DNA of 64,000 nt from an uncultured Clostridia bacterium. GTDB lineage: Bacteria > Bacillota_I > Bacilli_A > RF39 > UBA660. Numbering within the stretch: position 1 is the stretch's first letter; every line of letters begins with the position of its first letter. The translations under genes were made by a program, and so were the position numbers. The DNA lies in assembly GCA_946409545.1 (NCBI GenBank), contig CAMJWT010000001.1, positions 71,483 to 135,482 of the forward strand, given 5' to 3'. The notes beneath the pieces were generated by a model. It had not been told where the DNA came from. It saw nothing but the letters and a program-made list of their open reading frames with translations, and made no database searches. Positions 34,995-37,081 of the stretch are shown here, piece by piece.

Positions 34995-35672
34995 ATGATT
35001 GTTTTAGAACCAGAGACTCCTGTTGAAGAAGAAGAAAAAAAAGAAATTCCAAGGCTGAATGCCAATGATGCAATAAGAAAAATCGAAGATATCAATGATA
35101 TTATTTCGAAAATTCAGCGTGAGTTTATTGATAATACAGGAGAATATCTTTATAATTTAACTAATTCGTGGTGGTCAAATAAAGCTATTGCTTTTGGTGA
35201 AAAGTTAGTAAATAAAGTTGATGATGTAGATCGAAACCTCGTTTTTGTTGATGAATCTACTGTTAATGATGCTTGCAGTTCATTCAATGATGCTGCTCGT
35301 TTTCGTAATACTAGAAGTATTTATGTTCAAGCTGGACCTTTCCTAGGTGTTAATTATAAAAAGTTTAAAGAAGCTGATGACGCTGGAAGAGTTGGTATGA
35401 TAACTAGTGATGTTGAGAATCAAACAAGTGAATATGTTAATATTCTTGAATCAATAAAAAATGCTGTTAATGGTATTCCTAATAGTATTGGTTTTTATGA
35501 TGTTAATGGTTCTCTTGTTAAAACATATCATTTAAAGTTAGGCAATATAAGTAATCTAGTTAATGATTCAATAAATCTTGTTAGTAATGAAGTCCAAACA
35601 GCAACTCAAGAAGAGGTTGATTTAACTAAAACTGCTGCAAGCGATGCTACATCAGTATTATCTAGTAAATAA
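34995..35672 (+). CDS. Hypothetical protein with a WXG100-like N-terminal helical domain. Paralog of 36413..37081.
   Basis: Has 'NSWWSNKAIAFGEK'. Shares 'IPxL....AIxxIxxxNDxIxxIQ..F' and 'FYDVNGSL' with the 36413 ORF. Confidence 0.4.
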   Translation: MIVLEPETPVEEEEKKEIPRLNANDAIRKIEDINDIISKIQREFIDNTGEYLYNLTNSWWSNKAIAFGEKLVNKVDDVDRNLVFVDESTVNDACSSFNDAARFRNTRSIYVQAGPFLGVNYKKFKEADDAGRVGMITSDVENQTSEYVNILESIKNAVNGIPNSIGFYDVNGSLVKTYHLKLGNISNLVNDSINLVSNEVQTATQEEVDLTKTAASDATSVLSSK

Positions 35673-35707
35673 AACATCTTTTGATGTTTTTTTTAAAGGA
35701 GGCAATA

Positions 35708-36373
35708 ATGATAGGGAATGATTGGGATCAAATATTATCAAATGAATTTAAAAAAGAATATTTTATAAATTTAATTAATAAAGTTCGTGATGAATATAAA
35801 AAGAAAACGGTTTTTCCAAGAAAAGATCAGGTTTTTAATGCTTTTCGTTATACTCCATATAAAGATCTTAAAGTAGTTATATTAGGACAAGATCCATATC
35901 ATGGAGTTGGGGAAGCAGAAGGCCTATCTTTTTCCGTACCACTTGATATTAAGAAGCCACCAAGCCTTGTTAACATTTTTAAAGAGTTAAATGATGATTT
36001 AGGAGTACCTATTCCTAATCATGGCAGTTTGCATAGTTGGGCAAGACAAGGAGTATTACTTCTTAACGCAACTTTAACAGTAATTAAAGATTTAGCTGGT
36101 TCTCATCAAGGATTAGGTTGGGAAACTTTTACAGATAATGTTATTAAAATAATAAATGAAAAAGATACCCCTGTTGTTTTTATATTATGGGGGAGATATG
36201 CAAGAAGCAAGAAGAAGTTAATAACTAATCCAATGCATTTAGTAATAGAGTCAGCTCATCCAAGTCCTTTATCAGCTTATAATGGATTTTTTGGAAGTCG
36301 TCCTTTTTCGAAAACTAATAATTTTTTAATAAAAAATAAAATGAAACCAATTGATTGGAAAATAAATAACTAA
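35708..36373 (+). CDS. ung: Uracil-DNA glycosylase
   Basis: Has the 'GQDPYHG' active-site motif and 'HPSPLSA'. AAGGAGG RBS. The N-terminal extension in the ORF track was rejected. Confidence 0.85.
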   Translation: MIGNDWDQILSNEFKKEYFINLINKVRDEYKKKTVFPRKDQVFNAFRYTPYKDLKVVILGQDPYHGVGEAEGLSFSVPLDIKKPPSLVNIFKELNDDLGVPIPNHGSLHSWARQGVLLLNATLTVIKDLAGSHQGLGWETFTDNVIKIINEKDTPVVFILWGRYARSKKKLITNPMHLVIESAHPSPLSAYNGFFGSRPFSKTNNFLIKNKMKPIDWKINN

Positions 36374-36412
36374 TATTTATATAATATGTTATAATCAAAA
36401 TAGGAGGAATGT

Positions 36413-37081
36413 ATGGCAAGTGAAAATTTAAATGATGAAAAAGAAGTGGTAAGAATTCCTGGATTGTATCCTTCTAAAGCAATAAAAGATATAAAAAATG
36501 TTAATGATGTTATCTGTAGTATTCAAAAAGTATTTGCTAGTGCAATTAATACTTATTTTGATAAACTATACGATTTATGGTCATCTCCAAAGGCCTTAGA
36601 ATTTTATGGAAGAACATCTAGTGAGTTAACTAGTATCAATGATGAAATCATTAGTTTTAACGAATCAGTAATAGATGAACTTGTAGCATCATTTAATCGA
36701 ATTGCGCCATCACATAGAGAATCATCAATTAGTGTTGCTAAAGGAGCTTATACAGTTTTAAAAATAAAACCTCTATTAGAAACTTTTGCTAATGGAAAAA
36801 TAGGTATGAAAGATAAATTGGTAGATAATGCAACAAGAGACTTTCTAATGCAAATTAAAAATATTGTTAATAAGACTTCACCTATTCCTAATGTGATTTA
36901 TTTCTATGATACAGATGGTAAATTAGCTGGCTCATGTAATACAAGAGTATCTGAATTAAGAAGTATTCTTGAAAAAGGTTTATCAAAAGCTAATTTATCG
37001 GCTTCGATAGTAGATGAAGCAACTACTAGTACAAGATTAGCTGCTAAGAATGCTGCATCTATTCTAAATACTCGTAGCTAA
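36413..37081 (+). CDS. Hypothetical protein with a WXG100-like N-terminal domain. Paralog of 34995..35672.
   Basis: Has 'DLWSSPKALEFYGR'. Has 'FYDTDGKL' and a C-terminal 'ILNTRS', compared with 'VLSSK' in the paralog. Confidence 0.4.
   Translation: MASENLNDEKEVVRIPGLYPSKAIKDIKNVNDVICSIQKVFASAINTYFDKLYDLWSSPKALEFYGRTSSELTSINDEIISFNESVIDELVASFNRIAPSHRESSISVAKGAYTVLKIKPLLETFANGKIGMKDKLVDNATRDFLMQIKNIVNKTSPIPNVIYFYDTDGKLAGSCNTRVSELRSILEKGLSKANLSASIVDEATTSTRLAAKNAASILNTRS

Follow-up and report, generated by a model that had tools for sequence, protein, structure and literature searches.

We analyzed a 64,000-nt stretch of DNA, here called the window, from an uncultured Clostridia bacterium (GTDB lineage Bacilli_A, RF39, UBA660; contig CAMJWT010000001.1), and we focused on two genes, A and B, that lie on either side of ung, the gene for uracil-DNA glycosylase (Table 1). 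A and B are ancient paralogs in an unannotated family of ~215-residue proteins from uncultured gut and rumen Bacilli (Erysipelotrichaceae-like metagenome-assembled genomes, MAGs), and the family is undescribed as far as the libraries we consulted show. Profile comparisons indicate that each protein is one helical hairpin duplicated in tandem and that this hairpin is a diverged relative of the ESAT-6/WXG100 unit. The best available mechanism is that A and B are substrates of a type VII secretion system (T7SS), a reading to which we give a probability of roughly 0.4 to 0.5; homology, architecture, and evolutionary behavior are what suggest export and dependence on a T7SS, not linkage to a secretion system.

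Comparison of A with B by BLASTP gave 61 identities over 218 positions (28%, with 53% positives, E = 5e-28). An earlier reading of the DNA (hereafter, the sequence-only reading) had called the two genes paralogs and listed three shared blocks, IPxL....AIxxIxxxNDxIxxIQ..F, W-(W/S)-S-x-K-A-x-x-F, and FYD(V/T)(N/D)G(S/K)L, and all three are present and aligned, which upholds the claim. Neither protein has a match in Pfam, NCBIfam, PHROGs, PADLOC, or PDB sequences. Scans of up to 86 relatives against Pfam, NCBIfam, PHROGs, and PADLOC returned only scattered noise of the coiled-coil type, and a search of PDB sequences with two family profiles found nothing below E = 0.4. A word-indexed protein search recovered nine close relatives, whose sole source name was "hypothetical protein," and a word-indexed search with an 86-member profile recovered only 6 proteins. 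An exhaustive HMMER search with a nine-sequence profile recovered 307 cluster representatives at E ≤ 1e-3, 153 of them at E ≤ 1e-10.

Nearly all family members are 205 to 230 aa long (typically 210 to 220) and are matched from about residue 6 to the C terminus; A and B score 181 and 174 bits, respectively, with the family hidden Markov model (HMM). In the 86-member alignment, W59 (A numbering) is invariant, and G20, S61, A64, F67, A101, G131, G134, M135, P162, D169, and E207 are conserved in at least 90% of members. The family consensus is M..FTGLNP..A..I..F ... W.SPKAVEF ... AYN..A.ANG ... G.VGMN..V ... P..IAFYDP.G ... E......AK..A...L. Sampling with a 10-member alignment yielded 2 genome loci and 15 metagenome loci, and the organisms are known here only from MAGs and metagenome contigs. 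Locus labels include "Bacilli bacterium," "uncultured Bacillales bacterium," and "uncultured Erysipelotrichaceae bacterium RUG12586," and the record prefixes RUG, STEW18, and XIEF21 denote what we take to be ruminant-gut metagenome sets. In a neighbor-joining tree, the A-type and B-type clades are older than the divergence of the genomes that carry the genes beside ung, and independent duplications occurred elsewhere. As a separate observation, lone weak matches to Mycoplasma families were found for P0058 and other members (PF23067 MG280, E = 0.0086; TIGR04527 MG_279/MG_280, E = 0.0028) and for A (NF045770 MPN403/MG284, E = 0.24); a distant tie of the family to Mollicutes proteins is possible.

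AlphaFold2 models of A (pLDDT 89.8, pTM 0.80) and B (pLDDT 89.9, pTM 0.82) are concordant, and both proteins are predicted to be four-helix bundles with a long crossover loop and a beta-hairpin. The A model has helices at residues 23-56, 62-103, 137-160, and 182-224 and strands at 164-169 and 174-179; the B model has helices at 20-55, 59-101, 134-155, and 179-220 and strands at 161-166 and 171-176. In the A model, the tight turn between the first two long helices falls exactly on W-W-S, a non-helical stretch of ~33 residues (the crossover loop) separates helices 62-103 and 137-160, and the beta-hairpin at 164-179 is formed by IGFYDVNGSLVKTY. Foldseek matches of the models in the PDB were nonsignificant.

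The two halves of the bundle resemble each other in sequence. We cut the family alignment into an N-half (A residues 15 to 106) and a C-half (128 to 225) and compared them with hhalign, which aligned the halves with a probability of 86.9% (P = 4.2e-6, score 31.8) in a register that places G.TGLNp..A..I..F on G.VGMNv..V..l..F. Control comparisons scored 9.9 ± 1.9 for 150 column shuffles (maximum 16.4) and 13.7 for the reversed alignment. Because the observed score far exceeds both sets of controls, we interpret each protein as a tandem duplication of a single hairpin unit. The second unit of A would begin at GRVGMITSDV, continue through a helix and then the beta-hairpin IGFYDVNGSL, which replaces the turn, and end in a long C-terminal helix with the conserved residues E207, A214, A218, and L222. 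The sequence-only reading had described a WXG100-like N terminus followed by a "C-terminal extension domain." By the hhalign result, the rest of the protein is instead a diverged second copy of the N-terminal hairpin, part of the same bundle, and this is new here.

We compared the repeat unit with WXG100 proteins in two ways. The first used a WXG100 mini-profile made from the window's two WXG proteins and four textbook sequences; since proteins named EsxA, ESAT-6, or WXG100 family that we retrieved from the database nearly all carry PF06013, these four should at least come close to true members. With hhalign, the whole family aligned to this mini-profile with W on W (P = 0.0045), and the N-half aligned in register, the family Trp on the WXG Trp, with P = 7.8e-4 and a score of 22.2 (shuffle maximum 18.8, reversed 10.2). 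The second test did not depend on the textbook sequences: we searched the N-half HMM against all 471 open reading frames (ORFs) of the window and the fetched loci. Besides family members and one weak match to a 739-aa ORF (E = 0.019), it matched the bona fide WXG100 gene of the window (15.3 bits, E = 4.6e-4) and the 90-aa gene that follows it, its bicistronic partner (E = 5e-6, model positions 7 to 75 aligned), and the latter is also the best non-family match of the whole-family HMM. Both alignments begin at the N-terminal "NPE" motif and include the turn. Of 3,000 composition-preserving shuffles, none reached either score, and the reversed sequences scored 6.6 (WXG100 gene) and 11.3 (partner). 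Because these in-register matches pass the shuffle and reversed controls, we conclude that the repeat unit is probably a diverged ESAT-6/WXG100-type hairpin, on scores that are modest in absolute terms.

We propose that an ancestral WXG100/ESAT-6-type helix-turn-helix unit was duplicated in tandem within one chain. Unit 1 would have the start (F)TGLNPxxA..I..F and turn at the invariant W-x-S-P-x-A-x-x-F, and unit 2 would have the start G-x-VGMN..V..l..F and make its "turn" through the beta-hairpin P..IAFYDPxG. The crossover loop of ~30 residues would permit the hairpins to pack against each other in antiparallel fashion as a single four-helix bundle. Because two WXG100-like hairpins appear to be fused in one chain, each protein would resemble a single-chain equivalent of the EsxA/EsxB dimer, analogous to mycobacterial EspB. 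Judging from the topology of the models, the conserved end of the C-terminal helix would come to lie next to the W-x-S turn; the bipartite export signal for T7SS is arranged in this way in EsxAB and EspB (PMC11217815, PMC3935865). In function, the protein would most likely be a self-contained module of type VII style, either a substrate of secretion or a carrier; a minority of members bear C-terminal cargo, and A and B may act as a pair. Features that point to export are the lack of a classical export signal, the tandem duplications, the restriction of cargo to the C terminus, and fast evolution. The genome also has two WXG100-type loci.

The proposed module has likenesses to three groups of known proteins. 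With WXG100/ESAT-6 proteins (PF06013; EsxA, EsxB, YukE) it shares a predicted hairpin of ~90 residues in each half, a start of the form hydrophobic-x-hydrophobic-N/T-P-E-x-hydrophobic, an invariant turn Trp followed by A..F, antiparallel packing of hairpins into a four-helix bundle, acidity, the absence of a signal peptide, and tandem gene duplication. It differs in having two fused units in one 215-aa chain rather than two ~100-aa chains, a W-x-S-P rather than a W-x-G turn, a beta-hairpin (FYDPxG) in place of the turn of unit 2, scores below the Pfam threshold, and genes that do not adjoin an EssC/EccC ATPase. The ESX-1 substrate EspB of Mycobacterium tuberculosis (PDB 4wj1, 6xzc, 8ako), which we group with PE-PPE heterodimers, differs from the family in belonging to the actinobacterial T7SSa and in its YxxxD/E motif and lack of a beta-hairpin; it oligomerizes into rings, and it has no detectable sequence similarity to A and B. 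LXG toxins of T7SSb (PF04740) share an N-terminal helical WXG100-related domain of ~200 residues with a variable C-terminal payload, and the small membrane-protein gene that follows the hydrolase-like domain of one family member (P0060, below) is a further likeness. In contrast to LXG proteins, the A/B family has no PF04740 match, most of its members lack a payload, no Lap- or Esx-type partner genes adjoin it, and the predicted bundle is compact rather than an elongated rod. LXG, PE/PPE, and EspB substrates are all built in this way, from a helical module at the N terminus and a payload that varies at the C terminus.

The family as a whole is acidic (median pI 4.6), and its members have no signal peptide-like, transmembrane (TM)-like, or hydrophobic segment. 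The pI is 4.2 to 5.5 in 26 of the 29 tabulated members, and 4.2 to 5.0 in 23 of these. The B clade nearest the window is basic, with pI 7.8 to 9.1 (window B; L001 7413..8081; L004 7414..8079). Because the B clade turned basic while A is acidic, the charges suggest an A-B complex. A, B, and most other members are bare modules without a payload. About 10 of the 150 best matches (~7%) are longer, and the extra length is always C-terminal: P0047 and P0065 have Gly/Ser-rich tails ending in GGHDF, P0058 and P0068 have Pro-rich tails, and P0141 has a Ser/Thr-rich tail. P0047 and P0065 come from different clusters and end in the same pentapeptide, which may be a sorting or processing signal. One further variant, P0060 (L034 401..2202, 508 aa), has a C-terminal domain of ~270 residues with a GFSRG nucleophile-elbow motif and a weak match to Tle1-like phospholipases of type VI secretion systems (T6SS; E = 0.011, below threshold). 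The 3' end of uvrB lies upstream of its gene and a 67-aa gene encoding two TM segments lies downstream; together, the P0060 gene and the 67-aa gene look like a toxin and its immunity partner, with the family module as the base.

We used the ratio of nonsynonymous to synonymous substitution rates (dN/dS) to compare evolution of the three genes in the same genomes. The ratio was 0.03 to 0.09 for ung, 0.21 to 0.42 for A, and 0.31 to 0.36 for B, so A and B are at ~4 to 10 times the value of ung; identities to the L001 orthologues are 96% for ung, 81% for A, and 68% for B. Because dN/dS against orthologues shows purifying selection, A and B are real genes. Selection on them is much more relaxed or diversifying than on the core enzyme, as one would expect of proteins that are exported or take part in interactions. 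The rate gap to ung also argues against an alternative named in the sequence-only reading, namely, that A and B are conserved housekeeping proteins.

Several results weigh against the T7SS-substrate reading, and those that concern the kinship with WXG100 proteins come first. A and B have no PF06013 match at E ≤ 1; PF06013 is listed for 0 of 86 members at E ≤ 0.01 and is absent from the 25 most-matched families at E ≤ 10. No member reaches a Pfam WXG100, LXG (PF04740), or ESAT-6-clan model; one member matches DUF5344 at E = 0.003, which is the sole similarity to the partner families of that Pfam clan. The turn reads WWS in A and WSS in B, and among 140 full-length members, 129 have Ser where W-x-G has its glycine, 2 have Ala, and 1 has Gly. 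The C-half scored 20.0 against the WXG100 mini-profile and 16.3 when reversed, which is unconvincing by itself. A re-derived WXG100 profile gave weaker matches (P = 0.004 to 0.015); adding database matches to broaden the profile led back to the same six clusters and left significance no better. The C-terminal helix of WXG100 proteins follows the pattern HxxxD/ExxhxxxH (PMC3935865), and the family matches it at only three of the four positions. Column 203 is hydrophobic in 81% of members, E207 is present in 93%, and column 214 is hydrophobic (mostly Ala) in 80%; column 210, the "h" position, is hydrophobic in just 22%, and the hydrophobic column is 211 instead. The YxxxD/E export motif that follows the second hairpin in proteins of the EspB/PE-PPE type has no counterpart among conserved column patterns, Tyr168-Asp169 being followed by P-x-G. 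Each half is predicted to be a hairpin of ~100 residues, as in WXG100 proteins, and the whole chain, a 220-aa fusion of two, exceeds that size.

Given the W-x-S turn, the lack of PF06013, the partial C-terminal pattern, and the absence of YxxxD/E, the family is at best a relative of the WXG100 superfamily, not a member of the WXG100 family. The sequence-only reading, which had placed A and B in the superfamily, was borne out for the N-terminal ~90 residues, which form a predicted hairpin with Trp at the turn and in-register profile similarity; by the Pfam and W-x-G criteria it was not.

The gene neighborhoods also weigh against T7SS dependence. We found no T7SS core genes in about a dozen independent neighborhoods of family genes, and no EssC/EccC, EsaA, EssB, or YukD-like gene in the window or in flanks of up to 10 kb at the loci covered (L001-L007, L009, L010, L015, L019, L020, L027-L034). 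The neighbors are housekeeping genes, such as rluB, tig, gatCAB, metK, uvrB, ung, and dnaB. The sole FtsK/SpoIIIE protein is encoded in an Erysipelotrichaceae MAG (L010 10464..11348, minus strand) ~1 kb away from two family members in tandem; it has 294 aa, one N-terminal TM segment, and a PF01580 match of 62.9 bits, and neither the window nor the remaining loci encode a homologue. This isolated case could be a minimal secretion ATPase or a remnant of a mobile element. In addition, the cargo-bearing variants are few, and the hydrolase assignment for P0060 is weak. The sequence-only reading had suggested small T7SS-type effectors or immunity-like proteins and a look at whether homologs sit beside T7SS genes. 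In the neighborhoods covered they do not, and nothing supports an immunity role; the cargo variants, evolutionary rate, and tandem expansion fit a secreted substrate.

The main rival explanation, which we consider possible and on balance somewhat unlikely, is that A and B are lineage-specific cytoplasmic proteins (an adaptor, a chaperone, or a structural bundle), either derived from WXG100 proteins or look-alikes, with no relation to T7SS. It would account for housekeeping, syntenic neighborhoods without T7SS core genes in every case examined, for the loss of the W-x-G glycine and the lack of a Pfam ESAT-6-clan match, and for the persistence of the genes in a deep lineage, where the identity of A-type orthologues falls as low as 33%. 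It does not readily account for the dN/dS gap to the adjacent ung, the repeated tandem expansion, the conserved C-terminal tail, or extensions that are strictly C-terminal and either low in complexity or hydrolase-like. Because rate, expansion, C-terminal extensions, and conserved tail are together typical of exported or surface proteins, we favor that character over a core cytoplasmic one.

An improbable alternative is that A and B are T7SS accessory or targeting factors, comparable to the Lap/EsxC/EsxD-type escorts of LXG toxins, that pair with the anchored proteins of the WXG island at 16.8 to 26.4 kb (described below). The remote similarity to WXG100-type hairpins would be the same for such factors, large proteins without Pfam matches adjoin the WXG100 genes of this genome, and acidic and basic A and B could form a pair. 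Against this, no locus encodes family members beside candidate cargo, some members bear their own C-terminal cargo as a substrate would, and the DUF5344 match of one member is the only similarity to the Pfam ESAT-6-clan partner families.

A third alternative, which we regard as very improbable, ties A and B functionally to ung, as DNA mimics that regulate or inhibit the enzyme or as its partners in the repair of uracil. DNA mimics known to inhibit Ung are acidic, as is A, and the A-ung-B order is found in every relative of the sub-lineage, even where A is only 33% identical. The order from the symporter gene upstream of A to the SPFH gene downstream of B is kept in all relatives of the window's sub-lineage (L001-L007, L029, L030); A orthologues are 81 to 53% identical in L001-L007 and 33% identical in L029 and L030, which have two B-type genes. 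Because the whole surrounding region in this sub-lineage is syntenic (rpsF to rpoB, ~30 kb), gene order carries little information, and the bracketing of ung is an inherited, lineage-specific order rather than functional coupling. Family genes of other lineages are never by ung: they lie between rluB and tig (L015, L020, L031, L032), adjoining metK (L009, L010, L027, L028), after uvrB (L034), or, in L019, with small Cys-rich ORFs on one side and, on the other, an HD-domain-like gene that precedes valS (a rodA/ftsW-like gene is located farther upstream). Family genes are arranged in tandem, as pairs or triples, in L010, L012, L014, L015, L017, L023, L025, L026, L029, and L031. Thus, of the picture of proteins found with ung in all relatives, which the sequence-only reading had raised as a counter-scenario, the part that stands is the conserved order within the sub-lineage. 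The basic charge of B, the terminator-like hairpin after A, the promoter-like element before B, and the roughly ten-fold rate gap to ung also speak against a tie to the enzyme.

A fourth alternative, divergent ferritin-like or Dps-like bundles that bind metal or protect DNA, resembles the family in topology only (ferritins are also duplicated hairpins) and is very improbable and largely refuted, because just three columns (66, 169, and 207) are at least 70% Asp/Glu/His, with no E/ExxH diiron or Dps ferroxidase set and therefore no metal site, and also in view of the 3 to 11% sequence identity to those matches (Foldseek E ≥ 0.012, TM 0.2 to 0.3), the lack of any ferritin, Dps, or rubrerythrin Pfam match in 86 members, and conserved residues that are the turn and start motifs common to WXG100 proteins. 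Three further candidates were rejected: a ClyA-type pore-former with a beta-tongue (the hairpin is not hydrophobic, and the maximum 19-residue hydropathy is low), PspA/ESCRT-III (no Pfam match, and a compact bundle), and a phage or defense origin (family-library scans).

A bolder form of the T7SS-substrate reading, which we offer only tentatively, is that the family consists of unrecognized type VII-style substrates of Bacillota: single-chain "Esx dimers" encoded by orphan genes, with a W-x-S-P turn, whose module would be a portable export domain, located N-terminal to cargo of lipase-like or low-complexity type. Their genes would be dispersed over the core genome of gut and rumen Bacilli with reduced genomes, and the proteins might be the firmicute counterpart of EspB. 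In a stronger variant of this tentative idea, these lineages would lack a canonical EssC, and the family would be exported by, or work with, something else.

Table 1. Features of the A-ung-B locus and WXG-like genes elsewhere in the window (positions are those of the 64,000-nt stretch)
Feature	Position	Strand	Basis and remarks
WXG100 gene, bona fide	18819..19139	+	PF06013, 31.9 bits (cutoff 27.3)
Helical 90-aa partner of the WXG100 gene	19161..19433	+	Family HMM 19.0 bits, N-half HMM 21.6 bits
Second WXG-like pair: 25017..25307 (96 aa) and overlapping 25285..25653 (122 aa, helical)	25017..25653	+	PF06013, sub-threshold (25017..25307)
Candidate promoter-like site TTGACT-17-TATTAT upstream of A	34944..34972	+	Consensus scan, 10 of 12 matches
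Gene A	34995..35672	+	ORF, 225 aa; acidic, pI 4.58
Putative repeat unit 1 of A (aa 15-106), WXG100-like hairpin; start IPRLNANDA, turn W59-W-S61	35037..35312	+	hhalign, N-half HMM
Putative repeat unit 2 of A (aa 128-225)	35376..35669	+	hhalign, N-half vs C-half
Hairpin AAACATC-TTTT-GATGTTT and T-run directly after the A stop	35672..35694	+	Read from sequence
ung (uracil-DNA glycosylase), between A and B	35708..36373	+	PF03167, 56.3 bits
Overlapping promoter-like match upstream of B	36356..36385	+	Consensus scan
Extended -10 TGTTATAAT (TGnTATAAT) upstream of B	36387..36395	+	Read from sequence
Ribosome-binding site AGGAGGA of B	36402..36408	+	Read from sequence
Gene B	36413..37081	+	ORF, 222 aa; basic, pI 8.4; family and predicted fold as for A

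The window has ~28% G+C, and one strand carries nearly all genes. The 5' neighbor of A encodes a sodium:alanine symporter and the 3' neighbor of B encodes an SPFH/Band-7 protein; the Pfam match in Table 1 confirms ung as the gene between them. As the sequence-only reading had noted, A and B each have a ribosome-binding site (RBS), with a Shine-Dalgarno-like AGGTG before A and AGGAGGA before B. The promoter-like site upstream of A is a candidate only, because the number of such sites that the consensus scan found in the region equals the shuffle expectation. The hairpin and T-run after A could be a weak terminator; its stem is AT-rich and falls under the GC criterion of the scan. The longest ung ORF starts at TTG 35681, within this T-run, and the true start is probably ATG 35708 behind the RBS AAAGGAGG. 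Based on the signals that we read in the spacers, A, ung, and B look separately signalled. The spacer between B and the SPFH gene (37084..37240) has a promoter-like site with a TG-extended -10 at 37084..37112 and, ~80 nt downstream, a terminator-like stem-loop at 37192..37216; the SPFH gene likely starts near 37262. This spacer could be a leader or an attenuator, with a folding z-score of only -1.6; Rfam had no match in the window, and nothing credible in this spacer.

The window also has WXG-like genes far upstream of A. The product of the WXG100 gene at 18819..19139 is P0162 in the database, where it carries PF06013 and the JGI name "YukE." In the second pair, the gene at 25017..25307 has a sub-threshold PF06013 match (22.4 bits, E = 1.5e-4), and its orthologue in relative L033 carries PF06013. 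With these two WXG100 loci, each with a small helical partner, plus A and B, the count of at least six WXG-like genes in the sequence-only reading is reasonable. Both loci lie in an island (16808..26368) whose gene order is kept in L033. The island also encodes a 696-aa ClpB-like AAA+ protein (19528..21618), two large proteins without Pfam matches that are anchored by a C-terminal TM segment and contain beta-rich modules in repeated copies (17387..18661, minus strand; 21684..24254), a 238-aa protein, and a 228-aa TM protein (25682..26368, minus strand). No EssC-type ATPase is encoded in the island. We found nothing relevant in the literature on T7SS or WXG100 proteins in Erysipelotrichia or Mollicutes.

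Other genes of the window deserve brief mention. Three consecutive genes just upstream of rpoB (39536..42855; 289, 715, and 99 aa) have orthologous loci without a precomputed Pfam match, and their order is kept in L001, L029, and L030. The genes at 696..1247 (183 aa) and 3997..4440 (147 aa) are paralogs that share SVMLGNL.R.K.K.SD...KYQ..ID.FN.NN.RQMY and bracket a cluster of membrane and Zn-ribbon proteins. At the end of the window, and running off it, 61399..64000 encodes a large protein that has a signal peptide and a ~90-residue module repeated many times; by eye, the module resembles surface adhesin domains of the Cna-B/SpaA type.

Overall, a family of hundreds of sequence clusters, with no relative in Pfam, NCBIfam, or the PDB, can now be interpreted as two ESAT-6-type hairpins fused in one chain. 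If the family is exported, the T7SS substrate repertoire of Bacillota would widen beyond WXG100 and LXG proteins, and A, B, and their relatives would serve as a natural model, in a single chain, of the Esx four-helix bundle with its bipartite signal. Export would also be a sign of secretion or surface biology in uncultured rumen and gut Bacilli, which have very few annotated surface factors. If the family is not exported, it would be a case of a secretion-system hairpin that took on a cytoplasmic function. In both cases, the family profile is of practical use for annotation.

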